From Mobula hypostoma (taxonomy: Eukaryota), in assembly GCF_963921235.1 (NCBI RefSeq), contig NC_086097.1, positions 105,216,001 to 105,280,000 on the forward strand: a DNA stretch of 64,000 nt, given 5' to 3'. A program made the position numbers and the translations under genes. A model generated the notes under the pieces. The model did no database searches, was not told where the DNA came from, and saw nothing but the letters and a program-made list of their open reading frames with translations. Of this stretch, positions 2,895 to 61,556 are shown in pieces. The stretch's first letter is position 1; each line of letters opens with the position of its first letter.

Positions 2895-3156
2895 ATTTTT
2901 TGTTTGCAAATGTAAGTGGTAATTAGGTGAGAATGCACTTGATACAAAGAACCTTAGAAGTGACGTTTCCCCTGCTACCTATTTGTTAACCAGAAAGAAT
3001 TCAGAAAGCAGAATTTGATGTCACTTTTAATCAATACAATGTAAAGCATACTTGCATTTAAATTTGAGGAGGAAATATTGAGAGAACGCAATGAGGAGAG
3101 GTGATGGCGGAGGCTTGCAAGGGCAGTGCTGTGTGCCTGAAGTAATCCTATGTACT

Positions 3157-6100
3157 AGGTGTGAGGAGGTTAGTTCACAACAGAGGGATGGGAACCAGTG
3201 CAGAGAGACAGAGGGGTGTAAAGTGAGCGTAGAAGCAAAAAGTACAAAGGGGAAAAGTAAAAGTGGCAGGCCGACAAATCCAGGGCAAGCATTAAAAAGG
3301 GCTAAGAGAGTTGTAAAAGAGTGCCTGAAGGCTTTATGTGTCAATGCAAGGAGCATTCGTAATAAGGTGGATGAATTGAAAGTGCAGATTGTTATTAATG
3401 ATTATGATATAGTTGGGATCACAGAGACATGGCTCCAGGGTGACCAGGGATGGGAGCTCAACGTTCAGGGATATTCAATATTCAGGAGGGATAGACACGA
3501 AGGAAGGGGAGGTGGGGTGGCGTTGCTGGTTAAAAAAGAGATTAACGCAATAGAAAGGAAGGACATAAGCCGGGAAGATGTGGAATCGATATGGGTAGAG
3601 CTGCGTAACACTAAGGGGCAGAAGACGCTGGTGGGAGTTGTGTACAGGCCACCTAACAGTAGTAGTGAGGTCGGAGATGGTATTAAACAGGAAATTAGAA
3701 ATGTGTGCAATAAAGGAACAGCAGTTATAATGGGTGACTTCAATCTACATGTAGACTGGGTGAACCAAATTGGTAAAGGTGCTGAGGAAGAGGATTTCTT
3801 GGAATGTATGCGGGATGGTTTTTTGAACCAACATGTCGAGGAACCGACTAGAGAGCAGGCTATTCTGGACTGGGTTTTGAGCAATGAGGAAGGGTTAATT
3901 AGCGATCTTGTCGTGAGAGGCCCCTTGGGTAAGAGTGACCATAATATGGTGGAATTCTTCATTAACATGGAGAGTGACGTAGTTAATTCAGAAACAAAGG
4001 TTCTGAACTTAAAGAGGGGTAACTTTGAAGGTATGAGACATGAATTAGCTAAGATAGACTGGCAAATGACACTTCAAGGATTGACGGTGGATATGCAATG
4101 GCAGGCATTTAAAGGTTGCATGGATGAACTACAACAATTGTTCATCCCAGTTTGGCAAAAGAATAAATCAAGGAAGGTAGTGCACCCGTGGCTGACAAGA
4201 GAAATTAGGGATAGCATCAATTCCAAAGAAGTAGCATACAAATTAGCCAGAGAAAGTGGCTCACCTGAGGACTGGGAGAAATTCAGAGTTCAGCAGAGGA
4301 GGACAAAGGGCTTAATTAGGAAGGGGAAAAAAGATTATGAGAGAAAACTGGCAGAGAACATAAAAACGGACTGTAAAAGCTTTTATAGATATGTAAAAAG
4401 GAAAAGACTGATAAAGACAAATGTAGGTCCCCTTCAAACAGAAACAGGTGAATTGATTATGGGGAGCAAGGACATGGCAGACCAATTGAATAATTACTTT
4501 GGTTCTGTCTTCACTAAGGAGGACATAAATAATCTTCCAGAAATAGTAAGGGACAGAGGGTCCAGTGAGATGGAGGAACTGAGCGAAATACATGTTAGTA
4601 GGGAAGTGGTGTTAGGTAAATTGAAGGGATTGAAGGCAGATAAATCCCCAGGGCCAGATGGTCTGCATCCCAGAGTGCTTAAGGAAGTGGCCCAAGAAAT
4701 AGTGGATGCATTAGTGATAATTTTTCAAAACTCGTTAGATTCTGGACTAGTTCCTGAGGATTGGAGGGTGGCTAATGTAACCCCACTTTTTAAAAAAGGA
4801 GGGAGAGAGAAACCGGGGAATTATAGGCCGGTTAGCCTAACGTCGGTGGTGGGGAAACTGCTGGAGTCAGTTATCAAGGATGTGATAACAGCACATTTGG
4901 AAAGCGGTGAAATGATCGGACAAAGTCAGCATGGATTTGTGAAAGGAAAATCATGTCTGACGAATCTCATAGAATTTTTTGAGGATGTAACTAGTAGAGT
5001 GGATAGGGGAGAACCAGTGGATGTGGTATATTTGGATTTTCAAAAGGCTTTTGACAAGGTCCCACATAGGAGATTAGTGTGCAAACTTAAAGCACACGGT
5101 ATTGGGGGTAAGGTATTGGTGTGGGTGGAGAATTGGTTAGCAGACAGGAAGCAAAGAGTGGGAATAAACGGGACCTTTTCAGAATGGCAGGCGGTGACTA
5201 GTGGGGTACCGCAAGGCTCAGTGCTGGGACCCCAGTTGTTTACAATATATATTAATGACTTGGATGAGGGAATTAAATGCAGCATCTCCAAGTTTGCGGA
5301 TGACACGAAGCTGGGTGGCAGTGTTAGCAGTGAGGAGGATGCTAAGAGGATGCAGGGTGACTTGGATAGGTTGGGTGAGTGGGCAAACTCATGGCAGATG
5401 CAATTTAATGTGGATAAATGTGAAGTTATCCACTTTGGTGGCAAAAATAGGAAAACAGATTATTATCTGAATGGTGGCCGATTAGGAAAAGGGGAGGTGC
5501 AACGAGACCTGGGTGTCATTATACACCAGTCATTGAAAGTGGGCATGCAGGTACAGCAGGCGGTGAAAAAGGCGAACGGTATGCTGGCATTTATAGCGAG
5601 AGGATTCGAGTACAGGAGCAGGGAGGTACTACTGCAGTTGTACAAGGCCTTGGTGAGACCACACCTGGAGTATTGTGTGCAGTTTTGGTCCCCTAATCTG
5701 AGGAAAGACATCTTTGCCATAGAGGGAGTACAAAGAAGGTTCACCAGATTGATTCCTGGGATGGCAGGTCTTTCATATGAAGAAAGACTGGATGAACTGG
5801 GCTTGTACTCGTTGGAATTTAGAAGATTGAGGGGGGATCTGATTGAAACGTATAAGATCCTAAAGGGATTGGACAGGCTAGATGCAGGAAGATTGTTCCC
5901 GATGTTGGGGAGGTCTAGAACGAGGGGTCACAGTTTGAGGATAGAGGGGAAGCCTTTTAGGACCGAGGTTAGGAAAAACTTCTTCACACAGAGAGTGGTG
6001 AATCTGTGGAATTCTCTGCCACAGCAAACTGTTGAGGCCAGTTCATTAGCTATGTTTAAAAGGAAGTTAGATATGGCCCTTGTGGCTACAGGGGTCAGGG

Positions 6101-6220
6101 GGTATGGAGGGAAGGCTGGGTTCTGAGTTGGATGATCAGCCATGATCATAATAAATGGCGGTGCAGGCTCGAAGGGCCGAATGGCCTACTCCTGCACCTA
6201 TTTTCTATGTTTCTATGTTT
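3157..6220 (+). mobile_element. Young CR1 LINE with uninterrupted ORF2 frame (APE endonuclease + RT); no ORF1
   Basis: NARSI, ITETWL, YRPP, GDFN, SDH, PQGSVLGP and FADD all intact to stop at 6126. (TTTCTATG)n tail. 9-bp TSD CTATGTACT at 3148-3156 and 6221-6229. Confidence 0.95.
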
Positions 6221-8032: not shown

Positions 8033-8715
8033 TACTAAATACCTTGATTTATAAAGACCAATGTGTCAAAAGCTCTCTTCATGACTATCTACTTGTGATT
8101 CCACTTTCAAGGAATCATAGACCTTCATTCCCAGAACCCTCCAAGATAACCCCACAAAGGTAAAAAAGATCCAAGTTCTGAGTTGAAATGGCAGTGGAAG
8201 CTTTGTCAGTGATCAGAAGTTCCACTATGTTAATGGAGTCAGAAACTGACAAATCCCTTCTGCCCTACATCATTTTCCACCCCAACCACCTCCCCACACA
8301 CACAAACTCTTCCATATTCTTATTTATGTGGAGTAAGTTTGTTAATGCAACCACACAACACTCATATGGTGAGTTGATAGCTAGCCAAAGATCATCTCAC
8401 TGCAGACAAACAGTGCGTAGCAAGCTTCACCCTCTACACATCCATGTATTCTGAGTCACAAAACCAAAACAAGGTCCACAGGAATTGCTACAGCGTCAAC
8501 TGTGACTTACTGCACCATACTTGTAAGTCTGAAGACTTGAGTTCAAATCCATTCTGGAGGGTAAACACAAAGCCCTCAGTCAACATTGCCGTGAGGGCGG
8601 CACTGAGAGGTAAGACATGCTGTTGGACTGAAATTTTAACCGAACACCAATTCTGTCAGATGCATAGAAAAATTTCTACAAGCGAACAAGAGGAACAAAT
8701 TATTTCCTTACTGAC

Positions 8716-10875
8716 CTTGGTAAACCCTTGCCAAGCTCCTGTTTCTTTTTAGCGACTTGCTGTATAACTTGATCCCAATTGACATGATGCCGAGATACAT
8801 TCAGCAGCTGACGTACAGTTGGTTTCAGACCAGATTCCTTCTCGGATTCACTTTTCTTCTGACTTCCTATGTTCCGAATTCGGCGGGCGATATTGAGGTT
8901 TGGTTCAGGGACATGAGTACCAGGTCGGGACTTAGCGTTGATGTGGCGGGTTAGGTCTCTCTGTACAGAGGTGGGAAGTCCAAGCTTGTTGAGTTCAGAC
9001 AGGAGACTGTTGGAACCCTGGGTCCCTCCACTCTGTAGCTCAATATCAGAGGAACAATTATCAAATGTTTCAGGAGGCATGGAACCTTGGACCTCATTTG
9101 CATTTTTTGCTTCAGTCACTGCAAAGGAGAAAGTGAACGATGGCTGATCTCTTGTTCTTGAAGCCAAGGCCTTTGAATCACCTTTTGTGATGCAGACTTC
9201 AAAATCAGCATCATGCTGGGTACCTAATATAGCTGTTTGATCTTTTATTGTTTGTGCACAAGACTGCCTCTGATCTGAATGCATGCTGGCAGAATCCATA
9301 ATTGTATCTGAGTGAGATTCTTCTATTTTTTGTACACAAGTCTGGCCTGAACTTACAGCTGTAACTGGGTCCAACTCTTCTGAAATGCCAATAGGTTCTT
9401 GGCTCAGTTTCCTGGAGTCACCTGGTGCTTGCTGCACCATGTCTCCATCTGTGTTCTGCAATATACTGTTACTGTTTCTACCCTCCCCAGGTTCTCCACT
9501 ACTCTCTGGATGACTGTCTTGTCCACATTCAGACTGACTCTGCCTCAGGGCTTCTCTGGCCAGTCTCAGCATCTCATTCAAACTATTGTCCAGTGGCGAT
9601 TTGTCACCACAGCCTGGTGCAGCCAGTGAGGGCCGTACAGTTGTCTCTGCGGTAGCTTCTGTTGAAAGGGGAGCTGTTGATGTGCTTGGTGCACTGTTCA
9701 GCCCTTGTGTGCTCTTACTAAGTAGTGAACATTGTGTTCCCAAATTGGGGGACCTTGGCCACTTCTCACTTTCTATCTTAAATGAGGGTTCGTCTTTCTT
9801 TGGGTTTGAATCTGAAGCAGAGGATGCACGTTCAGGAGGAGGACTGGGTAAAAATTTGGCATGAAGCATGGCAGGAAGCTGGTTCCCATCTTCGTTTGCT
9901 GCTTTGATTTCATCCTCTGTTGAGTAACCATGTTGTATTACAGAGCTTGCACCACTGTTTGATCCTTCAGTCACTTTCCCAGAGTGCCGACCACCACTTC
10001 GGTGCCGAGTCTCAGTGTCTTTCACTCGTGCCGACCTGGAACTACTCCCAGATTCATTCACATTCTTGCTTCTAATACCAGGATCTGTGGCCAGATCTTT
10101 AGACCTCTGAGGACGATATGGAGCCCAGCGATGCCTCTTATCTCTCGGGGGACTTAAACTTTTCCCCCCCTTCTCATCACTTTTATTCTGGGCTTTTAAC
10201 ACAAGGTTAAAACTCAACATCCCTTCACTTGGCACATCATCACTGGTGAAATCCATGTGACATTCCTGAAAGGCATAATCGTTCTTGCTGTACCTGTCTG
10301 ACGTTTTTCTCCCTGGCCTCCTCCAGTTTTGTGCTTTCTCCCACGCACGCCGATCTCTCACACTTCTGCTATCCATTTGATTCAACTTCTGCATTTTCCC
10401 TTTATTCCATTTCCGATCCAGCTCCTCCACAGAATTACCGCTGTTACCAGGCTGATGTCGGGCATTCGACCTGCTGCTCATGTAGTGAGCTGCACTGTCT
10501 GCAACAGTGCTGGCACTAGTGTTCCAGTTTGATGGGCCCCCTTGGACCTTGCGATGATGACTAGGTGCCCCCCCTGGTCCACTGGAATGCCAGCTATGAT
10601 TGGAATACCAATTGGGAGCCGCTTCGCTGTCATCGGGCTGCCAACTGTGATGTCCCCACGAGCCCGGTAAGCGTCGGTTTGAAGAACCCCCTGAATTTGT
10701 CTTCCAGTGGTATTTGCTCAATCTGCAACTGGCATATTCCCTTGGGACCCAGTTCCGCTCCCGCTCTCCTGCACTTTCATGGTGCCATTGGCTCATAGGC
10801 TGGTCTTCCCTCATCCTCCAATATCGTCTGTCATCACCATCTGCTCGGTTTCCTGGCTTGGGCACATCATTCTTT
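8716..10875 (-). CDS. ZNF106: ZNF106 large coding exon 4 (2160 nt), low-complexity W/S/G-rich region
   Basis: Within ORF 8700..10898. Ends ...QRDLTRHI...PEPNLNIARRIRNI...VNWDQVIQQVAKKKQELGKGLPR as in ZNF106. Acceptor ttttgtgtag, donor AG|gtcag. Confidence 0.95.
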
Positions 10876-11149
10876 CTACACAAAACAAAATAACACACAT
10901 ACAGTTATTAAATTTACAGCACAGTAAGTAGCTATTGGTCCAACATGGAAAGAACATCAAACTACTGCAGATACTGGAAACCTGAAACAAAAACCAATGC
11001 TGGAATACTCGAGGTTACCTGTGGGAACTGTCAATGCTTTACGTGCAGGACCCGATGAAGAATTCCAAACCTAAAACATTAGCCGTTTCTCTTTCTACAG
11101 ATGCCACCTGACCTGATTGAGAGCTTGCAATTTTTTTGTTATTTTAGCC

Positions 11150-11705
11150 GTTGGTTGTTTGTCCATCATTGACGTCGATGAGGGCCTCGACATCATTATG
11201 ATGGTGTCAAGACTAGCGCGTGATTTGGATTTAAGTGAGGGAGAGTTGTGCAGCGTCAGCCTCACTCTCTCTTCCCAATTCCCATCTGGATCCAGTGGCA
11301 AGACAGAGTCTAGATGGCTGGAGATGGGACTAGGCGCAGTGGATAACCAGGACGTCTTCTGTGTCTTGTCCTGCTCTACACGTTCCACGACGCTTGCAGA
11401 GACCGCCTTCGTGACTGTTGGACCTTCCATAGGTCTCTCCGCTCATTCCGCCGGAGTCTGTCTTCACATGCTGGGATAGACAACTCCCTATCACACCGAG
11501 GGTTTGAGACCCGTCGGCTACCCTCACCTGGTTTAGCCGGCTTGTCGAAGCCATTGCCCGGGGTGTGGCCGCTGTCGCATGCAAACAGCTACGGGGAGCC
11601 ACAGGTGAGAGCTGAGTGCCAGGTGGGGACCAAAGGTGGACTAACCGCCCTGAAAAGGACGCGACTTTTTCCCCGACCAGAGGTGCTACCCCTCCCTGAC
11701 ACCCC
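11150..11705 (-). mobile_element. Non-autonomous RTE-derived element (5' UTR fused to 3' tail)
   Basis: No RT ORF; CAA-rich tail. 5' and 3' parts resemble recalled RTE-derived elements of the MAR1/RTE1_Mars type. Confidence 0.6.
11521..11705 (-). ncRNA. Putative HDV-like self-cleaving ribozyme at the RTE element 5' end
   Basis: P1 GGGGTGT(11705-11699)/ACACCCC(11566-11560). P2 CTCACCTG/CAGGTGAG. P3 GGC/GCC. L3 begins TCC with GG after P1' (P1.1). P4 GGCTT-CGAC-AAGCC. J4/2 CTAA. Confidence 0.6.
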
Positions 11706-13217
11706 ATACACCGTATGAGGTCTTCATCTGATGTTACTTGCTCCCAATGTAATTTCCATTCCTTCTCTAATTTATATGCTTCCCTTTTTACAATCAGATT
11801 CCCTTTAAATGGTAACCTTCATCACAGCAAGTTTCTTATACAAAGTATTTTTGAAACCATCTCTTTTGGTCCTTGGTCTTTACCCCTGTCTTATGCAAAC
11901 CAACTGTGACAATTGCTTCTTGCCCTGTGCCTCCTCACCTCTTGGATCCAACCATAGATTGCAGTCTCTTCCTCTCTGAACTCAATATGTTCTCAAAGCC
12001 TTTGGGCCTCTCCTCTAACCTCTATAGTGAGACTGAAGACAGTGCAAATAATTCTTCTCAAGGCCACAAGTGATATTATATATATTCCTCATTGCAATCT
12101 ATATTCTTTCTTAATCATCAGCCAATAAATATATATTACTTTCCCTCAAATCCTCCCACAACTTGATTTAACTTACATTTATAGAAAACCTTTCACATTC
12201 CCTTCAGGTCTTTGCAATCCGAAGAACCATTTTAAGTCACTATTAAAAGATGAGAAATTTAATTGACAGCAAGTCCCTACAAATAAAAACATGATTTGGA
12301 CTAGACAATGTTTTAGAAATTCTGAAACAGGAATAAATATTTGCCAAGGCACTGAGGATAACTCTCTTGTGCTTATTCAAGAGCAGTGGTTCTCAAACTT
12401 TTTTGGATTACTGCTCTCTTAGCTCCTAGATCATATCCCCCAAGCCCTTTTCCCTTTCCAGCAATAAAAAAAAATATAAAGAATTTAGGTTTACAATGCA
12501 GTGAAAGAAAATAGGAACTGCAAATGTAAAGCAGTGATAAATATTTGCAAAAGTTATTCATCTCTATTTAAAGCTACAAATAAAATTATATCCTTATTTA
12601 ATTACAGTACAAACAATTTTCATCAGCAATTTTAGAGCATACATTAGAAGTCCAAATATTCACTACTTCATAGCTTTTTCACCTTTCAGTGAGATGGATG
12701 GGCTTGGTGTAGAGATATCAGCTTCTCAATATCAGGCTGAATGTCACTCAGAAGGAGTCTCAAATCTCCACATTCAATAATTTGCCATCTGTTTTGTTAC
12801 TTTGAAAGACATTGGGTAGATTGCACTGAAACTGCGCTAACCTAAATTTGGTGTTGGAAAGGCAATAAAGAATACCTTGACCACAGTACAAGATAGTGTT
12901 CGGAGATCTCTTTCTGCAACTAAAAGTTTTGATATCATTTTTTTCAGCCTTGGCTTCAGCTCAAAGCCATTATGTAACAAGATCAGTTCTTTCTCTATTT
13001 TTCCTGTTAATTCTTCATTGCAAATGTTCAGGAATGGATGTATTACCGACTCTGGAATTTGGACCGAGAGAAGATCCTGAAATCTCTCTGACATGTCTTT
13101 ATGTAGCTCACATAGATGGGCATAGTCTACTTGAAGATCATCATCTGGTATTCTTCCTTTCTCTTCCAACTCAGAAAAGACCAGAAATTGGAAAAGGTCA
13201 CAACGGCCAATGCTGCA

Positions 13218-15572: not shown

Positions 15573-18500
15573 CTTTGTTGTGAGGTGCAGGCAAATATGT
15601 TTTGAAGGGTTTGCCATTATTGAAAGTTGTCGCAAAGTGACTGAAAATAAGCCAAGTTCTTGTTTGCTTTATCAATGTGTATTCTCTTCAAATAGTCAAG
15701 GAGCCAAGATGGTTTCATTGCTTCAACTGAAAAAACTTTTTTCACACAACAGACACCTGGTTGCTGGTTGGTTGGTTGTTTGGTGCTGATACAAATCCAT
15801 TTTTCTGAAACTACACACGATACCGTCTACACTTCTTTTTTGTTTGGTCTGCTTCTGCTATATTCATTATGGATTAATGATCACTATCAATCGCCTATTG
15901 TTCATGTTCAACTTCAAATACTGCAATCAATAAAGGGGAAAACTATGATACCATCATTGCTTAGGTAAAACCAGACTCTCTGACTGAAGGTACATAAAAT
16001 GAGGCAGTGATATCTTGGTTGGGCCATGGGGCTAGCAAAATGCAGTCAACACCATTTGAAAGGGCAGATACTTAACGTTACCCCATTGAACACCACACCC
16101 TAATTCACAGGATTTCATCACTGTGTGATTAGATTATGGGAACTATACTAGCTAATGCTGTACTACACTACTGAAGGGCAAAAACGCGTGGTCTGGATCC
16201 TGAGATAACACGATTTCTGCAGTGCAGTTTCTCAAGATATGCCAAATACAGAAGCGTAACTTTGCTTTTTAACAACTATATTGTGCTTTGAGCACAGTCC
16301 GAGAGAATGGTGGGTTAAACAAGATATGAAGTGATTATGCGATCACTACACTGTAATCAGTTATGAGGCAATACTTGCAATAAGTAATTCATTTCTTAAA
16401 TTAATCCCTCAACTACCCCCTTTGCTACTGAGCACCCTCCCCCTACTCTCCCAGGACTGGGGGCAATATCTTCCATTTTGAGAACCATTGTTGTAGTGCA
16501 TCAAGGGATCTTTTGCATTCACTGAAAGGTACAGTTGGCGGGGACGACTGACCAGGGGTAAGCCAAGGTGGCAGGGCCTCCAGCACTGAGTCTGACCCTG
16601 TGGTACACAGAAGAGGAGAGCTGTCATCACTGGGGACTCTATAGTCAGGGGAGCAGACAGGAGATTTTGTGGACGTGAGAAGGACACCCGCATGGTGTGT
16701 TGCCTCCTGGGTGCCAGGGTCCGGGATGTCTCTGACCGGGTGCACGACAACCTGGTATGAGAGGGAAAGCAACCAGAAGTCGTGATACATGTTGTCACCA
16801 ACGACAAAGGCAAGAAGAGGGATGAGGTCCTGAAGTGTGAGTTTTGGGAACTAGGCAGAAGGCTGAAGAACAGGACCTCAAGGGTGGCGTTCTCAGGATT
16901 GCTGCCAGTGCTACACGATAGTGATGGTAAGAATCGGAGGAGATGGTAGTTGAATGTGTGGCTGAGGAGTTGGCGCAGGGGGCAAGGTTTTAGATTTTTA
17001 GATCATTGGGATCTCTTCTGGGGAAGGTGGGACCTGTACAGATTGGATGGGTTGCACCTGCACTCCAGGGGGAGCAATATCCTTGCAGGTAGGTTTGCTA
17101 GCATGGTTCGGGAGGGTTTAAACTAATTTGCAAGGGGGATGGGACCCAGAGCGATAGAGCAGTGAAGGAAGTACATGGAGTAAAGCCAGATCTTAACATA
17201 TAGAGAGGCTTTGAGGAAAGAGAAGCAGAATAAAAGGTGTAAAGGTAGTAAGGTAGAAGGGCTAAAGTGCGTGTACGTCAATGCAAAAAACACCAGGAAC
17301 AAAGGTGATGAACTGAGAGCTTGGATACATACATGGAATTATGATGTAGTGGCCATTACAGAGACTTGGCTGGCACCAGGGCAGGAATGGATTCTCAATA
17401 TTCCTGGATTTCAGTGCTTTAAAAGGGATAGAGAGGGGAAAAAGGGGAGGAGGGGTGGCATTACTGGGTAGGGATACTATTACAGCTACAGAAAGGGTGG
17501 GTAATGTAGCAGGATTGTCTCTTGAGTCAGTATGGGTGGAAGTCAGGAACAGGAAGGAAGCAGTTACTCTATTGAGAGTATTCTATAGGCCCCCTGCTAG
17601 CAACAGAGATACCAAGGAGCAGATAGGGAGGCAGATTTTGGAAAGGTGCAAAAATAACAGGGTTATTATCATGGGTGACTTTAACTTCCTTAATATTGAT
17701 CGGCACCTGATTAGTTCCAACTGTTCAGACGGGGCAGTTTGTTAAGTGTGTTCAGGACGGATTCCTGTCACAGTATGTGGACAGGCCAACTAGGGGGAAT
17801 GCCATACTAGATCCAGCATTAGATAACGAACCGGGTCAGGTTACAGATCTCTCAGTGGGTGAGCATCTGGGGGACAGTGACCACCACTCCCTGGCCTTTA
17901 GCATTATCATGGAAAAGGACAGGAAAATTTTTGATTGGGGAAGGGCAAATTTTGAGGTTATAGGCTAGAACTTGCAGGTGTAAATTGGGATGATGTTTCT
18001 GCAGGGAAACGTACTATGGACATGTGGTCGATGTTTAGGGATCTCTTGCAGGTTGCTAGGGATAAATTTGTCCCGGTGAGGAAGATAAAGAATGGTAGGG
18101 TGAAGGAACCATGGGTGACAAGTGAGGTGGAAAATCTAGTCAGGTGGAAGAAGGCAGCATACATGAGGTTTAGGAAGCAAGGATCAGATGGGTCTATTGA
18201 GGAATATAAGGTAGCAAGAAAGGAGCTTAAGAAGGGGCTGAGAAGAGCAAGAAGGGGGCATGAGAAGGCCTTGGCAAGTAGGGTAAAGGAAAACCCCAAG
18301 GCATTTTTCAGTTATGTGAAGAACAAAAGGATGACAGGAGTGAAGGTAGGACCGATTAGAGATAAAGGTGGGAAGATGTGCCTGGAGGCTGTGCAAGTGA
18401 GCAAGGTCCTCAATGAATACTTCTCTTCGGTATTCACCAATGAGAGAGAACTTGATGACGGTGAGGACAATATGAGTGAGGTTGATGTTCTGGAGCATGT

Positions 18501-19809
18501 TGATATTAAGGGAGAGGAGGTGTTGGAGTTATTAAAATACATTAGGACAGATAAGTCCCCGGGGTCTGACGGAATATTCCCCAGGCTGCTCCATGAGGCG
18601 AGGAAAGAGATGATCTTTATGTCCTCTTTGTCCACGGGAATGGTACCGGAGGATTGGAGCGAGGCGAATGTTGTCTCCTTGTTCAAAAAAGGTAGTAGGG
18701 ATAGGCCAGTGAGCCTGACATCTGTGGTGGAAAAGCTGTTGGAAAAGAGTCTTAGAAATGTGAGCTATGGGCATTTAGAGATACATGGTCTGATCAGGGA
18801 CAGTCAGCATGGCTTTGTGAAGGACAGATCGTGTCTAACAAGCCTGATAGAGTTCTTTGAGGTGGTGACCAGGCATATAGATGAGGGTAGTGTAGTGAAT
18901 GTGATCTGCATGGATTTTAGTAAGGCATTTGACAAGGTTCCACACGGTAGGCTTATTCAGGAAGTTAGAAGGCATGGGATCCAGGGAAGTTTGGCCAGGT
19001 GGATTCAGAATTGGCTTGCCTGCAGAAGGCAGAGGGTGGTGGTGGAGGGAGTACATTCAGATTGGAGGATTGTGACTAGTAGTGTCCCACAGGGATCTGT
19101 TCTGGGACCTCTACTTTTCGTGATTTTTATTAACGACCTGGATGTGGGGGTAGAAGGGTGGGTTGGCAAGTTTGCAGACGACACAAAGGTTGGTGGTGTT
19201 ATGGATAGTGTAGAGGATTGTCGAAGATTGCAGAGAGACATTGATAGGATGCAGAAGTGGGCCGAGAAGTAGCAGGTGGGGTTCAACCCGGAGAAGTGTG
19301 AGGTGGTACACTTTGGAAGGACAAACTCCAAGGCAGAGTACAAAGTAAATGGCAGGATACCTGGAAGTGTGGAGGAGCATAGGGATCTGGGGGTACATGT
19401 CCACGGATCCCTGAAAGTTGCCTCACAGGTAGATAGGGTAGTTAAGAAAGCTTATGGGGTGTTAGCTTTCATAAGTCGAGGGATAGAGTTTAAGAGTCAC
19501 AAGGTAATGATGCAGCTCTATAAAACTCTGGTTAGGCCGCACTTGGAGTACTGTGTCGAGCTCTGGTTGCCTCACTATAGGAAGGATGTGGAAGCATTGG
19601 AAAGGGTACAGTGGAGATTTACCGGGTTGCTGCCTGGTTTGGAGAGTATGCATTATGATCAGAAATTAAGGGAGCTGGGGCTTTACTCTCTGGAGAGAAA
19701 GATGATGAGAGGAGACTTGATAGAGGTATACAAGATATGAAAAGGAATAGATAGAGTCAACAGCCAGCGCCTTTTCCCAAGGGCAACACTGCTCAGTACA
19801 AGGGGACAT

Positions 19810-20593: not shown

Positions 20594-22927
20594 ATAGAAA
20601 CATAGAAAATTGGTGCAGGAGTAGGCCATTCGGCCCTTCGAGACTGCACCGCCATTTAGTATGATCATGGCTGATCATCCAACTCAGAACCCCGCCCCAG
20701 CCTTCCCTCCATACCACCGATCCCTTTAGCCACAAGGGCCATACCTAACTCCCTCTTAAATATAGCCAATGAACTGACCTCAACTGTTTCCTGTGGCAGA
20801 GAATTCCACAGATTCACCACTCTCTGTGTGAAGAAGTTTTTCCTCATCTCGGTCCTAAAAGGCTTCCCCTTTATCCTCAATCTGTGACCCCTCGTTCTGG
20901 ACTTCCCCAACATCGGGAACAATCTTCCTGCATCTAGCCTATCCAATCCCTTTAGAATTTTATACGTTTCAATAAGATCCCCCCTCAATCTTCTAAATTC
21001 CAATGAGTATAAGCCTAGTTGATCCAGTCTTTCATCAAATGGAAGTCCTGCAATCTCAGGAATCAATCTGGTGAACCTTCCTTGTACTCCCTCTATGGCA
21101 AGGATGTCTTTCCTCAGATTAGGGGACCAAAACTGCACACAATACTGCAGGTGTGGTGTCACCAAGGCCTTGTACAACTGCAGTAGTACCTCCCTGCTCC
21201 TGTACTCGAATCCTCTCGCTATAAATGCCAGCATACCATTCGCCTTTTTCACCGCCTGCTGTACCTGCATGCCCACTTTCAATGACTGGTGTATAATGAC
21301 ACCCAGGTCTCGTTGCACCTTCCCTTTTCCTAATCGGCCACCATTCAGATAATAATCTGGTTTCCTGTTTTTGCCACCAAAGTGGATAACCTCACATTTA
21401 TCCACATTAAATTGCATCTCCCATGAATTTGCGCACTCACTTAACCTATCCAAGTCACCCTGCATTCTCTTAGCATCCTCCTCACAGCTAACACTGCCGC
21501 CCAGCTTCGTGTCATCCGCAAACTTGGAGGCGCTGCATTTAATTCCATCGTCTAAGTCATTAATATATGTTGTAAACAACCGGGGTCCCAGCACTGAGCC
21601 TTGCGGTACCCCACTAGTCACTGCCTGCCATTCTGAAAAGGTCCTGTTTATTCCCACTCTTTGCTTCCTGTCTGCTAACCAATTTTCTATGCACATCAAT
21701 ACCATACCCCCAATACCGGGTGTTTTAAGTTTGCACACTAATCTTCTGTGTGGGACCTTGTCAAAAGCCTTTTGAAAATCCAAATATACCACATCTACTG
21801 GTTCTCCCCTATCCACTCTACTAGTTACATCCTCAAAAAATTCTATGAGATTCGTCAGACATGATTTTCCTTTCACAAATCCATGCTGACTTTGTCCGAT
21901 GATTTCACCGCTTTCCAAATGTGCTGTTATCACATCCTTGATAACTGACTCTAGCAGTTTCCCCACCACCGACGTTAGGCTAACCGGTCTATAATTCCCC
22001 AGTTTCTCTCTCCCTCCTTTTTTAAAAAGTGGGGTTACATTAGCCACCCTCCAATCCTCAGGAATTAGTCCAGAATCTAAAGAGTTTTGAAAAATTATCA
22101 CTAATGCATCCACTATTTCTTGGGCTACTTCCTTAAGCACTCTGGGATGCAGACCATCTGGCCCTGGGGATTTATCTGCCTTCAATCCCTTCAATTTACC
22201 TAACACCACTTCCCTACTAACATGTATTTCCCTCAGTCCCTCCATCTCACTAGACCCTCTGTCCCTTACTATTTCTGGAAGATTATTTATGTCCTCCTTA
22301 GTGAAGACAGAACCAAAGTAATTATTCAATTGGTCTGCCATGTCCTTGCTCCCCATAATCAATTCACCTGTTTCTGTCTGTAGGGGACCCATATTTGTCT
22401 TAAACAATCTTTTTCTTTTCACATATCTATAAAAACTTTGACAGTCAGTTTTTATGTTCCCTGCCAGTTTTCTCTCATAATCTTTTTTCCCCTTCCTAAT
22501 TAAGCCCTTTGTCCTCCTCTGCTGGACTCTGAATTTCTCCCAGTCCTCAGGTGAGCCACTTTTTCTGGCTAATTTGTATGCTTCTTCTTTGGAATTGATA
22601 CTATCCCTAATTTCTTTTGTCAGCCACGGGTGCACTACCTTCCTTGATTTATTCTTTTGCCAAACTGGGATGAACAATTGTTGTACATCATCCATGCGAT
22701 CTTTAAATGCTTGCCATTGCATATCCACCGTCAACCCTTTAAGTGTCATTTGCCAGTCTATCTTAGCTAATTCACATCTCATACCTTCAAAGTTACCCCT
22801 CTTTAAGTTCAGAACCTTTGTTTCTGAATTAACTATGTCACTCTCCATCTTAATGAAGAATTCCACCATATTATGGTCACTCTTACCCAAGGGGCCTCTC
22901 TCAACAAGATTGCTAATTAACCCTTCC
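20594..22927 (-). mobile_element. Young 5'-truncated CR1 with open RT frame; same subfamily as 3157-6220
   Basis: ORF 20665..23025 is nearly identical in protein to 3091..6126 from EGLIS onward; (TTTCTATG)n tail at 20594-20609. Confidence 0.93.
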
Positions 22928-23199
22928 AAACTTGTCCTTTGGAAAGTCAAGGCAAGACTTTCACAGTGAACAGTCGGAACCTGCAGAGAGTTATTGAATA
23001 GAGAGGCTCTAGGGTTCACATACATGGTTCTCTGAAAGTGGCGTCACAGGTAGAGAAGGGTGGTGAAGTCAGCTTTTGGCATGTTGACCATCATCAGTCC
23101 AGGCATTGAATATTAAAAAGTCGGGAGGTCACAGTGCAGCCTTACAAGACTCTGCTGAGGCCGTACTTGTTGTATGTGTTCAGTTTTGGAAACCCACTA

Positions 23200-33584: not shown

Positions 33585-33845
<261 letters not shown>

Positions 33846-40851: not shown

Positions 40852-43225
40852 GGCATTTTCAAAGGCAGGTCATGTCTTACAAGCCTGATTGAACTTTTTG
40901 AGAACATGACTAAACATATTGATGAAGGTACTTTATTACTTTATTGTCGCCAAACAATTGATACTAGAACGTACAATCATCGCAGCGATATTTGATTCTG
41001 CGCTTCCTGCTCCCTGGAGTACAAATCGATAGTAAATATTAAAAATTTAAATTAAAAATCCTAAATAGAAAATGGAAAGTAAGGTAGTGCAAAAAAACCA
41101 AGAGGCAGGTCCGGATATTTGGAGGGTACGGCCCAGATCAGGGTCAGGATACGTTCAGCAGTTTTATCAGAGTTGGAAAGAAGCTGTTCCCAAATCTGGC
41201 CGTACAAGTCTTCAAGCTCCTGAGCCTTCTCCCGGACGGAAGAGGGACGAAAAGTGTTTTGGCTGGGTGGGTCGTGTCCCTGATTATCCTGGCAGCACTG
41301 CTCCGACGGCGTGCGGTGTAAAGTGAGTCCAAGGACAGAAGATAGGTTTGTGTGATGTGCTGGGCTGTGTTCACGATCTTCTGCAGCTTCTTCTGGTCAG
41401 GACAACTTCCGTACCAGGTTGTGATGCACCCTAGAAGAATGCTTTCTACGGTGCATCTAAAAAAATTAGTGAGGCTATTAGGGGACAGGCCAAATTTCTT
41501 TAGCTTTCTCAGGAAGTAAAGGCGCTGGTGGGCCTTCTTGGCAGTGGACTCTGCTTGGTTGGACCAAGTCAGGTCATTTGTGATACTGACCCCGAGGAAC
41601 TTAAAGCTTTTGACCTGTTCCACTTGCGCACCACCGATGTAAATGGGGTTGTGCAGTCCACTACTCCTTCTGACGTCAACAACCAATTCCTTCGTCTTGC
41701 TGACGTTGAGGGATAGGTTATTGTCTTCGCACCATGCCATCAGGTTCTTAATTTCCTCTCTGTACTCAAACTCATCATTACCTGAGATACTGTCTATAAT
41801 TGTGGTGTCATCAGCAAACTTATATATTGAGTTTGATGGAAACTTGGTTACACAATCATGGGTGTACAGTGTGTACAGCAGGGGGCTGAGTACACAGCCT
41901 TGTGGGGCACCGGTGCTCAGAGTGATTGTAGAGGAGAGCTTGTCCCCTATTTTTACAGCCTGGGTCCATTCTGTGAGGAAGTTGAAGATCCAGCTGCAGA
42001 TCTGAGTCCAGGTTCCGGAGCTTAGGAATCAAGTTTATTTGGAATGATTGTATTAAAGGCAGAGCTGTAGTCAATGAAAAGGACCCTTACATATGCACCT
42101 TTATTCTCCAGGTGTTCTAAGGAGGTAGAGCAGTAGATGTAGTGTACATGGATTTCAGCAAGGCATTTGATAAGGTACCCCATGCAAGGCTTATTGAGAA
42201 AATAAGGAGGCTTGGGATCCAAAGGGACATTGCTTTGTGGATCCAGAACTGGCCTGCCCACAGAAGGCAAAGAGTGGTTGTAGATGGGTCATATTCTGCA
42301 TGGAGGTTGGTAACCAGTGGCGTGCTTCAGGGATCTGTTCTGGGACTCCTACTCTTCGTGATTTTTGTAAATGACCTGGATGAGGAAGTGGAGGGATGGG
42401 TTAGTAAATTTGCTGATGACATAAAGGTTGGGGGTGTTGTGAATAGTGTGGAGGGCTGTCAGAGGTTACAGCGGCACATTGATAGGATGCAAAACTGGGC
42501 TGAGAAGTGGCAGATGGAGTTCAACCCAGGTAAGTGTGAGGTGGCTCATTTTGGTAGGTCAAATATGATGGCAGAATATAGCATTAATAGTAAGGCTCTT
42601 GGCAGTGTGGAGGATCAGAGGGATCTTGGGTTCTGAGTCCATAAGACACTCAAAGCTGCTACTCAGGTCAACTCAGACCCCACTTGGAGTACTGTGCTCA
42701 ATTCTGGTCGCTTCACTACAGGAAGGACGTGGAAACCATAGAAAAGGTGCAGAGGAGATTTACAAGGATGCTGCCTGGATTGGGGAGCATGCCTTATGAA
42801 AACAGGTTGAGTGTACTCAGCCTTTTCTCCTTGGAGCGACGGAGGATGAAAGGTGACCTGATAGAGGTATATAAGATGATGAGAGGCATTGATCGTGTGG
42901 ATAGTCAGAGGCTTTTTCCCAGGGCTGAAATGGCTAGCATGAGAAGGCATAGTTTTAAGGTGCTTGGAAGAAGGTATAGAGGAGATATCAGGGGTAAGTT
43001 GTTGTTTTTTTTTACACAGAGAGTGGTGAGTATGTGGAATGGGCTGCCGGTAGCGGTGGTGGAGGCGGAAACAATAGGGTCTTTTAAGAGACTCCTGGAT
43101 AGGTACATGGAGCTTAGAAAAGTAGAGGGCTATGGATAAGCCTAGGTAGTTCTAGGGTAAGGACATGTTCGACACAGCCTTTGTGGGCTGGAGGGCCTGT
43201 ATTGTGCTGTAGGCTTTCTATGTTT
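40852..43225 (+). mobile_element. CR1 3' half, interrupted at ~40930-42121
   Basis: KGRSCLTSLIE..KHIDEG| resumes as |[26 protein letters not shown] tail. Confidence 0.85.
40930..42121 (-). mobile_element. Rex/Babar LINE 3' part
   Basis: [49 protein letters not shown]; (AATAAAGT)n tail. Confidence 0.85.
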
Positions 43226-49958: not shown

Positions 49959-52900
49959 CTAGACAACGGGGTGACCCATTAGGGCATCCTTTGAGAGAAG
50001 GGTAGTGCAGTCTGATGTGACCAGAATGAACATTAAATTTTCCTGAATGCTATTGGTATTGCTTTGCTTTGGAAACTGAAGTAGAAAACCTCAGTTTGTT
50101 AAAGAAGAACAATGCATAGCAAAGCAAATATAGCTCCTCCTCATTTAACGAAGGACACTTTTGATGGCATCATTTCTAGTTTATCTGCCACCCTTGTGCC
50201 TCTCATTGTCATTCTGCAGATGCGCAGACCTTTCATCCCCCGTCTCTTCATCAGTTTCTTTGTCGCTGATCCTGGAGACGTGCATTTCTCAGCTCCTTTG
50301 TCTCTTCCTCTCTCCTCCTTCTGTGCCTGTTATTGTCATTCTGGAGACGTGCAGCCTTTTCATCCCCTGTCTCTTCAGCTCTTCTGCTGTTTGTTGTTTG
50401 TCTCTGATCCTGGAGACGTGCATGCCCCTCCTCCTCTGTCTTTTCTTCTCTCATCTTTTTTTGTCCTGACTCTTTGATCCTGGAGTCGTGCGGCCCTAGC
50501 CTCATCCGATTCTTGTTCTCTCCCTCTCCTTGCCGCTTCCCGACGACATTTGGCATCACCTCTTGATCATAATGTCCCCCTTCCCTTTCCACACGGCATG
50601 ATTAGGCTGACCATTTTTTTTTACCCTAATGCTGGATAGAAGATATGAAGCACTAACACCAAAGGACGCTGATTATTCTTGATGATGTGGTTGGTGCTCT
50701 CCGAAATGGACGTGATATAGTCACCGCTGTCCTTTGACTGCAGCAAAGGGTTGATGGGTGTCTCGAAGTACGTCATTACAATAAGATTTAATTATCTCTT
50801 ATTGATGGGTGGCAGTTAGATCTGTCCCAATCCTGCACATGCTGATGGTGATTAGTAGTATGTGACCCCTCGAAATAGAGCTGCCCTGCCCTTTTGCTCT
50901 GGTAGGTGTTGCCGCTGAGGCTGGCCGTGTGCATGCTCCAGGCTGTCATGTCCCGATTTCCATGATGGCCGATTGGGTCACGGGTGACAATAGACAATAA
51001 GTGCAGGAGTAGGCCATTTGGCCCTTTAAGTCAGCACCGCCATTCACTTTGATCATGGCTGATCATCCACAATCAGTACCCGTTCCTGCCTTCTCCCCAT
51101 ATCCCTTGACTCCGCTATCATTAAGAGCTCTATCTAACTCTTTCTTGAAAGCATCCAGAGAATTGGCTTCCACTACCTTCTGAGGCAGAGCATTCCAGAG
51201 ATCCGCAACTCTCAGGTGAAAAAGTTTTTCCTCAACTCCGTTCTAAATGGCCTACCGCTTATTCTCAAATTGTGGCCTCTGGTTCTGGACTCCCCCAACA
51301 TCGGGAACATGTTTCCTGCTTCTAGCGTGTCCAATCCCTTAATAATCTTATATGTTTCAATCAGATTCCCTCTCATCCTTCGAAATTCCAGTGTATACAA
51401 GCCCAGTCGCTCTAATCTTTCAACATATGACAGTCGCGCCATCCCAGGAATTAACCTCGTGAACCTCCGCTGTACTCCCTCAATAGCAAGAATGTCCTTC
51501 CTCAAATTTGGAGACCAAAACTGTATGCAATACTCCAGGTGTGGTCTCACCGGGGCCCTGTACAACTGCAGAAGGACCTCTTTGCTCGTATACTCAACTC
51601 CCCTTGTTATGAAGGCCAACATGTCATTAGTTTTCTTCACTGCCTGCTTAGTTTCAGTAACTGATGAACAAGGACACCAAGATCTTGTTGTACTTCCCCT
51701 TTTCCTAACTTGACACCATTCAAATAGTAATCTGCCTTCCTGTTCTTGCCACCAAAGCGGATAACCTCACATTTATCCACATTAAACTGTATCTGTCCAC
51801 TCACCCAACCTGTCCAAGTCATCCTGCATTATCTCAACATCCTCCACACATTTCACACTGCCACCCAGCTTTGTGTCATCTGCAAATTTACTAATGTTAC
51901 TTTAATGTATATCGTAAATAGCTGCGGTCCCAGCCCGAGCCCTGCGGTACCCCACTAGTCACCACCTGCCATTCTGAAAGGGACCCGTTAACCCCTACTC
52001 TGTTTCCTGTCTGCCAACCAATTTACAATCAACGTCAGTACCCTACCCCCAATACCATGTGCTCTAATTTTGCCCACTAATCTCCTATGTGGGACCTTAT
52101 CAAAGGCTTTCTGAAAGTTCAGGTACACTACATCCACTGGCTCTCCCTTGTCCATTTTTATAGTTACATCCTCAAAAAATTCCAGAAGGTTAGTCAAGCA
52201 TGATTTCCCCTTCGTAAATCCATGCTGACTCGGACCAATCCTGTTACTGCTTTCCAAATGTGCCACTATTTCATCCTTTATAATTGACTCCAGCATCTTC
52301 CCCATCACTGATGTCAGGCTAACCAGTCTATAATTCCCTGTCTTCTCCCTCCCTCGCTTCTTAAAAAGTGGGATAACATTATCTACCCTCCAGTCCTCAG
52401 GAACTGATCCTGAATCATTGGAAAATAATTACCAATGCGTCCACGATTTCTAGAACCACCTCCTTAAGTACTCTGGGGCTATCAGGCCCTGGGGATTTAT
52501 CAGCCTTCAGTCCCATCAGTCTATCCAACACCATTTTCTGCCTAATGTGAATCTCTTTCAGTTCCTCCGTTGCCCTAGTTCCTCCAGCCACTATTACACC
52601 TGGGAGATTGTTTGTATCTTCCCTAGTGAAGACAGATCTAAAGTACCTGTTCAACTTGTCCGCCATTTCCTTGTTCCCCATAATAAATTCACCCGTTTCT
52701 GTCTTCAAGGGCCCAACTTTGGTCTTAACTAATTTTTTCCTCTTCACCTACCTAAAGAAGATTTTACTATCCTCCTTTATATTCTTGGCTAGCTTGCCTT
52801 CGTATCTCATCTTTTCTCCCCGTACTGCCTTTTTAGTTATCCTCTGTTGCTCTTTAAAAGTTTCCCAATGCTCTGGCTTTCTGCTCATCTCTACTATGTT

Positions 52901-55189
52901 ATACTTCTTCGCTTTTATTTTTATACTATCCTTGAGTTCCCTTGTCAGCCACAGTTGCCCCTTACTCCCCTTAGAATCTTTCTTCCTCTTTGGAATGAAC
53001 TGATCCTGCACCTGCTGTATTATTCCCAGAAATACCTGCCATTGTTGTTCCACTGTCATCCCTGCTAGGGTATCTTTCCAGTCAACTTTGGCCAGCTCCT
53101 CCCTCATGGCTCCATAGTCCCCCTTGTTCAACTGCAATAATGACAATTCCGATTTTCCCTTCTCCCTCTCAAATTGTAGATTAGAACTTTTCATATTATG
53201 GTCACTACCTCCTAATGGCTCCTTTACCTCGAGTTCCCTTACCAAATTCAATTCATTACACAACACTAAATCCAGAATTGCCTTCTCGCTAGTAGGTTCC
53301 AGTACAAGCTGCTCTAAGAATCCATCTCGGAGGCACTCCACAAACTCCCTTTCTTGGGGTCCAATACCAACCTGATTCTTCCAATCTACCTGCATGTTAA
53401 AATCCCCCATAACAACCGTAGCATTACCTTTGCAACATGCCAATTTTAACTCTTGATTCAACTTGCACCCTATATCCAGGCTACTGTTTGGGGGCCTGTA
53501 GATAACTCCCATTAGGGTCTTTTTGCCCTTACAATTTCTCAGTTCTATCCATACTGACTCTACATCTCCTGATTCTATATTGCTCCTCCCAAGGGACTGA
53601 ATTTCATTCCTCACCAACAGAGCCACCCCACCCCCTCTGCCCACCTATCTGTCCTTTCGATAGGACGTATACCCTTGAATATTCATTTCCCAGCCCTGGT
53701 CCTCTTGCAGCCATGTCTCTGTTATTCCTACAGTATCGTACTTGCCAATTTCCAACTGAGCCTCAAGCTCATCCACTTCATTTCTTATACTTCATGCATT
53801 CATATATAATACTTTTAATCTATTTAAAGTAATATTTTTACTCCCCTCACCTTTCACATTGATTCCTATTGCACTTGCCCATACTCTCCGATCCCTTCCT
53901 GAGCTTTCTGCCCCGTTAATTCTGTTGTCTTTATTAACTTTTCTTATTCTCTCATTCCCTTTAACTCCATCCTTATATTCCCCCCCCCCCCAACTGTTTA
54001 GTTTAAACACACCCGTGTAGCAGTGGCAAACCTGCCTGCCAGAATGCCGGTCCCCCGTCTGTTAAGGTGCAACCCGTCCCCTCTGTACAATTCATCCTTA
54101 CCCCAAAACAGATCCCAGTGGTCCAAGAATCTAAATCCCTGCCTCACGCACCAGCTCCTCGGCCACACATTCAGATCCCCTATCTCCCTGTTCCTGCCCT
54201 CACCAGCATGAGAAACTGGAAGCAAACCGGAGATAACCACCCTGGAGGTCCTGCTTTCCAGCCTTCTTCCGAGTTCTCTGAAGTCACGCTGCAGAATTTC
54301 TTTCCTCCTCTTCCCAATGTCATTTGTGCCAACATGCACTACCACTTCTGGCTGTTCACCTTCACCCTTGAGGATGTCCTGCAATCAGTCCGTGACGTCC
54401 TTGATCCTGGCACCAGGGAGGCAACACACCATCCTTAAATCCCGCCTGTTGCCGCAGAAACCCCTTTCTGTACCTCTCACTACGGAGTCCCCTACTACCA
54501 CGGCTCTGCCTTACGTCTGCCTCCTTGGCTTTGCTTCAGCGCCAATTTTTGACTCGCAGACTTGTCCGCCTCTCAGACTGGCAGTGTCTTCTGTCCCAAC
54601 AGCTTCCAAGAGGGTGAACCTGTTTTCAAGAAGTCTCCTGTACTCCAAGCATCCATCCCTTCCTCATCGTCGCCCCCCTTCTCTCTTCCGGTGTCTTCGG
54701 TGTAACGATCTCGCTGTAGGTCCTGTCCAGAAAACTCTCATTTTCCTAGATGAACCTGAGGTTATCCAGTTGCTTCTCCAGTGCCCCGATACGGTCCTTC
54801 AGGAGCTGAACCTGGACATACTTTTCACAGTTGTAGCAGCCAGAGGCACCATCTGTGTCCCTGACCTCCCATATCATGCATCACACTGAATCAGTTTACC
54901 TGTCATTTCTTCACCACCTCTCACCCTCTCCAAATGTGGCATAGTCTCCTTCCTCAACCTCCTTGCCGAAGACTCTTGAGCAAAAATTGAAAGGCGGGTG
55001 AAAGCCAACTCGTTGAGTTTTGGTGAATGAGCAATTTTATACGAATATATAACCCTGAACTTTACCTGCATTCTGTAAGTCAGCGCATTTTAATTTGATT
55101 TAGCCAAAAAAAATGCCGCTGTAATGCACCGTTTGCGCTAATTGGAGGTCACAAACAGACAGAGCATGAGAGTTTTAGTAGTATATAGA
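49959..55189 (-). mobile_element. Non-autonomous Helitron containing a nested CR1
   Basis: 5' TCTATATACTACTAAAA; 3' small hairpin then CTAG; inserted between A(49958) and T(55190) with no TSD. Repetitive ARLQDQRQ peptide (50251-50592). Confidence 0.7.
50988..55060 (-). mobile_element. Near full-length CR1 (ORF1 esterase + ORF2), frameshifted
   Basis: VVVHVGTNDIG..DGLHLN ORF1; EN/RT fragments; (ATTGTCT)n tail at ~50988. 5' boundary approximate. Confidence 0.85.
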
Positions 55190-60500: not shown

Positions 60501-61556
60501 AGAATTGGCTTGCCTGCAGAAGGCAGAGGGTGGTGGTGGAGGGAGTACATTCAGATTGGAGGTTTGTGACTGGTGGTGTCCCACAAGGATCTGTTCTGGG
60601 ACATCTACCTTTCGTGATTTTTATTAACAACCTGGATGTTGGGGTAGAAAGGTGGGTTGGCAAGTTTGCAGACGACACAGAGGTTGGTGGTGTTGTAGAT
60701 AGTGTAGAGGATTGTCAAAGTTTGCAGAGAGACATTGATAGGATGCAGAAGTGGGCTGAGAAGTGGCAGATGGAGTTCAACCCGGAGAAGTGTGAGGTGG
60801 TACACTTTGTGAGGACAAACTCCAAGGCAGAGTACAAAGTAAATGGCAGGCTACTTGGTAGTGTGGAGGAGCAGAGGGATCTCGGGGTACACGTCCACAG
60901 ATCCCTGAAAGTTGCCTCACAGGTGGATAGGGTAGTTAAGAAAGCTTATGGGGTGTTAGCTTTCATAAGTTGAGGGATAGAGTTTAAGAGTTGCGATGTA
61001 ATGATGCAGCTCTATAAAACTCTGGTTAGGCCACACTTGGAGTATTGTGTCCAGTTCTGGTCATCTCACTATAGGAAGGATGTGGAAGCATTGGAAAAGG
61101 TACAGAGGAGATTTACCAGGATGCTGTCTGGTTTAGAAAGTATGCATTATGATCAGAGATTAAGGGAGCTAGGGCTTTACTCTTTGGAGAGGAGGATGAT
61201 GAGAGGAGACATGAAGAGGTGTACAAGATAATAAGAGGAATAGATAGAGTGGATAGCCAGCACCTCTTCCCCAGGGCACCACTGATCAATAGAAGAGGAC
61301 ATGGCTTTAAGGTAAGGGGTGGGAAGTTCAAGGGGGATATTAGAGGAAGATTTTTTACTCAGAGAGTGGTTGGTGCGTGGAATGCACTGCCTGAGTCAGT
61401 GGTGGAGGCAGATACACTAGTGAAGTTTAAGAGACTACTAGACAGGTATATGGAGGAATCTAAGGTGGGGGCTTACATGGGAGGCAGGGTTTGAGGGTCG
61501 GCACAACATTATGGGCCGAAGGGCCTGTACTGTGCTGTACTATTCTATGTTCTATG
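57590..61556 (+). mobile_element. Near full-length CR1 (ORF1 zinc finger/leucine zipper/SGNH esterase; ORF2 EN-RT), inactivated
   Basis: CLSC..CQKC..LEDRVRNLEQQL; VIGDSIVRG; DGLHL; FADD; several stops and frameshifts. Confidence 0.92.

Follow-up and report, generated by a model that had tools for sequence, protein, structure and literature searches.

A probable HDV-like ribozyme fold at the 5′ end of a retroelement family in Mobula hypostoma, and its clipped copy in an intron of ZNF106

A fold resembling the HDV ribozyme lies in an intron of ZNF106 in Mobula hypostoma. Does it cut the pre-mRNA of the gene that houses it, or does it serve the mobile element that carries it? Within the window, i.e. 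the whole 64-kb stretch of DNA analysed here, ZNF106 is encoded on the minus strand, the same strand as the fold; over the part searched it is 100% identical to a Mobula hypostoma record. Its large coding exon (residues 106-826) occupies 8715..10877. As this exon begins at 10877 and the preceding coding exon ends at 33585, the fold lies inside a 22.7-kb intron, 644-828 nt from the large exon. These distances agree with a sequence-only reading of the locus, which had placed the fold on the ZNF106 sense strand 650-830 nt upstream of that exon.

All the following parts of the fold were read from the minus strand. P2 is formed by 11609-11602 with 11530-11523 and P3 by 11600-11598 with 11569-11567. 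The UCC that starts L3 (11597-11595) pairs with GG at 11559-11558 as P1.1, P4 occupies 11553-11538, and J4/2 is the CUAA at 11536-11533, with the putative catalytic C at 11536. These features had been named in the sequence-only reading along with a hairpin in L3, and every one of them was found in its place. The P1 named there, GGGGUGU at 11705-11699 with ACACCCC at 11566-11560, is likewise present as a pairing, but 11705 is not the first base of the element, which starts 7-9 nt further upstream.

The element family and its long partner

The fold belongs to a bipartite non-autonomous RTE-type retroelement. One copy, delimited by comparison with other copies, a long partner and an empty site, occupies 11152..11710 on the minus strand (at most 11150-11712); microhomology with the target leaves an uncertainty of 2 nt at either end. 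No second copy was found by blastn within the window. In the ray genome, a 30-mer from the core has 1,368 exact matches (0 for the control), and the region gave 1,743 first-look candidates, the best 40 of which were scored. The sample used below consists of 92 of the first 100 sites listed for one contig (C1), the ZNF106 copy, one other row and the last six being omitted. The second of two tandem motifs described in the next section is retained in 73 of the 92, and the other 19 are truncated further in. Copies are about 555-560 nt long and non-coding, and carry a short CAA/CCAA tail. Target-site duplications of at least 7 bp are present in 56 of the 73 copies (median 11). Such duplications with a microsatellite tail are the marks of a bipartite non-autonomous RTE element, although the duplication at the ZNF106 copy is only 4 bp.

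One sampled copy (L106) runs on into an endonuclease frame. Its full locus (L201) matches element positions 50-515 and, about 2.9 kb further on, 523-561; the short element holds both ends of an autonomous partner, an RTE-type LINE of about 3.4 kb, with the coding region deleted. By comparison with L201, the junction of the LINE 5′ part with the 3′ terminal ~40 nt, followed by the short CAA/CCAA tail, lies at 11154..11200 (minus strand) in the ZNF106 copy. A search with the extra part of L201 gave 435 candidates, the best 40 of which were scored and 30 fetched. L201 and 29 other long copies have the 5′ ~520 nt in common, followed by an endonuclease-RT frame, and homologues of the partner are EN+RT proteins of about 1,060 aa. 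We infer that the partner is of RTE type from its one EN+RT frame, its ~3.4-kb length and its tail, and we take the RTE clade label to apply to it. No name for the family was found in the literature searched.

Non-CpG change amounts to 3.0% in the stems and 3.0% elsewhere, as neutral decay gives; after insertion the copies appear to decay with their stems under no selection. An inverted repeat at the junction is kept in 77 of the 92 short copies, and the end duplex of L201, one long copy, is no stronger than 45 of 139 control windows. Two variants of the element (L072, L077) carry a tRNA-like, SINE-type insert of ~140 nt where the two LINE parts join.

Further endonuclease and/or RT frames lie in the window at 3082-6126, 17956-19272, 20665-23043, 41144-42028, 52748-53644 and 60089-60973; none of them matches the element by blastn. 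A search with DUF6451 led to another RTE-like family that has nothing in common with the element. A second RTE-like family is seen at L181 (G000:C36:131598155-131605154), which has a 1,018-aa open frame and a 5′ region with a hairpin followed by UAA, an arrangement that we take to resemble P4-J4/2 of a ribozyme. A loose end of low agreement hinted at a third family, but a search of the ray genome (G000) did not recover it. Viral contigs gave 0 matches in pattern scans and 0 loci in protein-based scans, and the pattern scan of prokaryote contigs gave 0 matches. The protein-based scan returned five prokaryote-labelled contigs, which hold no 5′ UTR, as their matches begin past the start of the endonuclease. 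A 2,952-bp contig in a bacterial MAG (L326) encodes a 66% identical relative of the RTE-type protein and is likely host contamination.

The 5′ end and the choice of the P1 strand

The family opens with two tandem GGGGUGU motifs, 9 nt apart, and the position of the true 5′ end tells which of them heads the element. On a scale where 0 is the equivalent of 11705 and -9 that of 11714, the 73 copies start 50 times at -9, 6 times at -8, 6 at -7, 4 at -6 to -4 and 7 at -3 to 0 (one at 0 itself). When four sets not chosen by their 5′ end are pooled, 118 of 145 ends fall at -9 to -7, 10 at -6 to -4 and 17 at -3 to 0. The family thus begins at G1, at the equivalent of 11714. The sequence-only reading had expected the ends to coincide with 11705 and had offered this as a test of itself; the ends went the other way. 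The same 5′ end is seen in contigs of four other organisms, in which two more family bases follow 11712 before the consensus is lost. The 17 ends at -3 to 0 leave room for minor use of the 11705 site. Three of them (L039, L148, L212) look like indel artefacts, and in most of the others T, AT or TAT is common to copy and flank. Four 5′ junctions (L121, L143, L075, L100) have more partial repeats of the 9-nt motif, a hint at the origin of the tandem arrangement.

In the ZNF106 copy the true P1 5′ strand of the family corresponds to 11708..11714 and the second GGGGUGU, a possible spare P1, to 11699..11705, both on the minus strand. Six of the seven bases of this second motif are normally paired in P1.2, the J1/2 domain at 11614..11704 (minus strand), which consists of a 10-bp basal stem (11704-11695 with 11623-11614) and a long irregular hairpin. 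In the folding model the basal stem has a pair probability of 0.93-1.0 and is complete before P1′ is transcribed; across lineages P1.2 shows one-sided changes. In the family majority sequence, a P1 formed with the second motif is less favourable by 12 kcal/mol. When the core is forced, the majority sequence is found in the upstream register for 96-99% and in the internal register for 0.01%, in nearest-neighbour models that ignore pseudoknot and tertiary energy.

Related lineages were used to look for compensatory change. A metagenome scan gave 4 loci, and the ribozyme region is present in L233 and L234 only, L232 and L235 being omitted from the alignment. Searches with L233 and L234 returned matches no more than 83% alike, so no closer family was obtained. 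An older family 2 in the ray (L236-L265, 66 exact 21-mer matches) is 68-83% identical to the element over long stretches; it has the same fold and tandem 5′ motif, with P4 and J1/2 changed, and keeps the upstream motif at each position in 10-14 of 18 copies. The alignment holds five related sequences of four lineages. In L234, which is 70% identical, the first motif and P1′ change jointly from G-C to A-U and the second motif no longer pairs. Overall, 4 of 38 pairs change on both sides (one in the upstream register of P1, one in P2 and two in P4), a modest signal from five sequences in which the P1 change comes from the one contig L234. None of 500 shuffles attained the covariation score, whereas 12 of 500 attained the number of two-sided pairs; slid partners gave lower scores. 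In the register proposed by the sequence-only reading P1 shows no two-sided change, and L234 breaks a pair. Covariation accordingly favours the upstream motif as P1, as support and not as proof, the sample being small and related. A sub-lineage (10 of 55 copies: L066, L073, L105, L110, L114, L118, L126, L127, L130 and L138) has G6 changed to A in the upstream P1 strand with P1′ unchanged; it carries an A.C mismatch there, yet its 5′ start is at the upstream motif.

The clipped copy in ZNF106

In the ZNF106 copy a 4-bp target-site duplication lies beyond the 3′ tail of the element (11148..11151, plus strand) and, at the 5′ end, at 11711..11714 (plus strand), where it gives A and C in place of the family G1 and G2. 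The duplication was recognised by comparison with an empty site in run X9: one contig from another organism (depth 9.7) joins 11136 to 11711 with 13 letters between. The other three runs show no such joint among the matches listed. From the empty site and the 4-bp duplication it follows that A and C at 11714 and 11713 are target DNA and that the copy inserted without G1 and G2. The insertion is absent at the orthologous site in that organism, in contrast to the conservation of the CPEB3 ribozyme, and it appears to be lineage-restricted. The flank at 11715-11730 resembles the 3′ hairpin of the element in opposite orientation; it belongs to the pre-insertion site, and pairing is possible between it and what is left of the upstream P1 strand.

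The copy differs from the family majority at 6 positions in 207 nt and its core is otherwise intact. Native P1 here makes 5 of its 7 pairs with 11566-11560; the two lost are positions 1 and 2, at the cleavage site, where A.C and C.C stand instead. The internal register offers a perfect 7 bp with U at -1. With the core forced, the damaged upstream register is populated to 9% and the internal one (11705) to 3.5%, so that neither gives an intact and accessible 7-bp P1. In HDV, U is the fastest base at -1, and at position 1 A1.C37 is tolerated better than any other substitute. P1 mismatches, even single ones, abolish or lower cleavage by the ribozymes of R2, Anopheles and SIDER2 (PMC3774820, PMC4035085), and P1 of CPEB3 is described as mutation-sensitive (PMC9901934).

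Taken on sequence grounds, these observations are probably best explained by a family whose RNA releases itself from host transcripts through scission 5′ of G1, the ZNF106 copy being a mostly inactive passenger. In read-through RNA, P1.2 would fold first and hide the second motif, leaving the first motif to pair with P1′. The C at 11536 would act as general acid, and cleavage 5′ of G1 would yield a template that the LINE proteins copy from its 3′ end. Self-release of RTE and R2 elements from host transcripts by ribozymes is reviewed in PMC6765202. At ZNF106 the 5′ junction may have formed 2 nt short via GG microhomology, which would account for the A.C and C.C in the native P1, and the perfect internal motif would be mostly occluded.

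A different outcome for this copy is that, with G1 and G2 gone, it refolds onto the second GGGGUGU and cuts ZNF106 pre-mRNA 5′ of 11705 fast enough to matter. The perfect 7-bp P1, the U at -1 and the intact core speak for such a rescue, as does the modelled rise of the internal register from its minute share in the majority sequence once the upstream strand is shortened. Some 10% of copies have their 5′ end near the 11705 G. A duplicated P1 in R2 is proposed to permit either site (PMC3774820), and the CPEB3 ribozyme tunes host mRNA (PMC10274809). Against it, the basal stem of P1.2 forms first and stays paired in the model. The internal register still costs 6.5 kcal/mol here and shortens P1.2; in the Anopheles ribozyme drz-Agam-2-1, P1.2 accelerates the reaction almost 1,000-fold and shortening it slows cleavage, according to PMC4908430, which describes a structured J1/2 and an extended P2. 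The ends near 0 look mostly like products of microhomology joining, and the insertion is missing from the other organism. We regard such a rescue as unlikely. The fuller proposal, that an active ribozyme with a helix in L3 and a hidden spare P1 switches strand in the clipped copy, cuts at 11705 and has become a young, CPEB3-like intronic ribozyme trimming ZNF106 output in devil rays, is quite unlikely in our judgement.

Under the preferred reading, self-release at G1, the ZNF106 copy is predicted by the folding models to cut poorly and, lacking its first two bases, is unlikely to have a role in controlling the gene. Cleavage of ZNF106 pre-mRNA by this copy is weakly supported at best, given the loss of G1 and G2, the need to open P1.2 and the lineage-restricted insertion, and regulation of ZNF106 by the fold is unsupported. 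Slow cutting at 11705 may still occur, since the folding model omits tertiary energy. Nature has supplied in this copy a neat test of register switching, but no evidence of gene regulation comes from it.

The core, the hairpin in L3 and known systems

In the family sequence P1, P1.1, P2, P3 and P4 follow in the order of a nested double pseudoknot, with a 7-bp P1 that opens with G1-Y and a P1′ immediately 3′ of P3′. The catalytic-core region (11523..11609, minus strand) comprises P2, P3, an 8-nt L3 motif at 11597-11590, P1′ at 11566-11560, the GG of P1.1, P4 and J4/2. Compared with the HDV features given in PMC1874588 and PMC6326823, its bases correspond to U20, C21, C22, C24, G25, G38, G39 and C75; the 8-nt motif that opens L3 matches U20, C21, C22, C24 and G25, and G38, G39 and the next bases match J1.1/4. 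The motif and the 2-bp P1.1 are complete in family 1, and C24 is substituted in family 2, L234 and L233. CUAA, the candidate catalytic C of J4/2 followed by the A-minor A, is present in all five aligned sequences; its second base is U, where a design descriptor takes R. All seven pairs of the upstream P1 are kept in 35 of the 73 copies, and the whole core in 21.

Nothing in Rfam reaches the gathering score on this fold, and relaxing the threshold to E<=10 brings up no relevant family. The plain MFE fold of the region is not unusually stable (z = -1.0). A descriptor with a strict L3 does not match the real sequence. One that tolerates the insert, composed after the fact, matches this site and no other on either strand of the window, and none of 3,000 shuffled versions of the region.

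L3 is 28 nt long, against about 8 nt (U20-U27) expected, because of a hairpin inserted between the 8-nt motif and P3′ (11571..11589, minus strand). The hairpin measures 19 nt and comes right after the motif, where HDV has U27, a position that is extruded and tolerant of change. It has the same sequence in family 1, family 2 and L234; in L233 an insert is present, with its pairing not kept, and the hairpin pairs show no covariation in the five aligned sequences. A hairpin-less version of the fold was not found in the ray genome (G000) by exact pattern. No L3 insertion in an HDV-like ribozyme was found in the literature searched, although Webb 2009, Ruminski 2011 or Webb and Luptak 2011 may already show one.

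Judged from its 5′ ends at the first GGGGUGU, the covariation of P1 there and the second motif locked in P1.2, the family probably carries an HDV-like ribozyme, one whose L3 has taken up an unusual hairpin. The bipartite anatomy and the alignment of lineages support the proposal of the sequence-only reading that an HDV-like fold with an atypical L3 hairpin heads an RTE-derived element. It is decidedly unlikely, in comparison, that the 5′ domain is a relic, or works as an internal promoter or translation signal, the uniform 5′ end being a transcription start and the L3 insertion having killed catalysis. Such a reading draws on an L3 three times the usual length, on the failure of Rfam and the strict descriptor to find the fold, on the propagation of the P1-mismatched sub-lineage and on trypanosome L1Tc, where the same 77 nt are reported to be a promoter as well. 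It is opposed by 5′ ends that coincide with G1 of a covarying P1, by the persistence of U20, G25, P1.1 and CUAA across lineages of 70-80% identity in which J1/2 and J1.1/4 have drifted, and by an insertion common to long and short forms, all of which spread. An alternative core, in itself compatible with self-release at G1, in which P3 closes right after the L3 motif (GGC with the next three bases, which can pair with one G-U in family 1, family 2 and L234) and the insertion lies between P3′ and P1′, is very unlikely, as it violates the rule that P1′ directly follows P3′, is mismatched in L233 and sits ill with the distal GCC kept in all four lineages.

A ribozyme heading a bipartite RTE element is a known arrangement, of which the helix in L3 and the hidden second P1 make this family a variant. 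It shares with the ribozymes at the 5′ ends of non-LTR elements a nested double pseudoknot at the exact 5′ end, variable upstream flanks and an RTE-type parent, and differs in the L3 hairpin and the tandem motif folded into P1.2; here the ribozyme is a predicted one. Like drz-Agam-2-1, it has a structured J1/2 (P1.2) and an extendable P2 flanking the core, but the part of PMC4908430 consulted describes no L3 insertion, and P1.2 of the ray family also hides a copy of the P1 strand. RTESINE1/2, MAR4_MD and RTE-N2_Lch, as presented in PMC5786205, likewise combine an autonomous RTE 5′ UTR with the 3′ end, have no ORF and no tRNA head, carry a microsatellite tail and keep the true 5′ end, whereas the ray family has a long 5′ part of ~520 nt; the same paper (Kojima) sets out this bipartite anatomy with its retained 5′ end and predicts ribozymes. 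The R2 elements with a duplicated P1 (PMC3774820) also have two tandem P1 candidates for one P1′; occlusion there is by substitution, whereas in the ray family the internal copy would be occluded by a helix. The CPEB3 ribozyme (PMC10274809) resembles the ZNF106 copy in having an HDV-like fold within an intron, in sense orientation and 5′ to an exon. It differs in being a single, conserved locus of demonstrated activity, whereas ZNF106 houses one of the many copies of a mobile family, and a clipped one.

Should an intact copy prove to cleave, the HDV core would be shown to accommodate a helix within L3, and such ribozymes may then be undercounted in vertebrate RTE elements, since strict descriptors miss the helix. 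With the whole core kept in about 3 in 10 of the sampled copies that reach the 5′ end, the ray genome may hold hundreds of potentially active ribozymes. Intact copies on the sense strand of introns are better candidates for an effect on a host gene than the copy in ZNF106.
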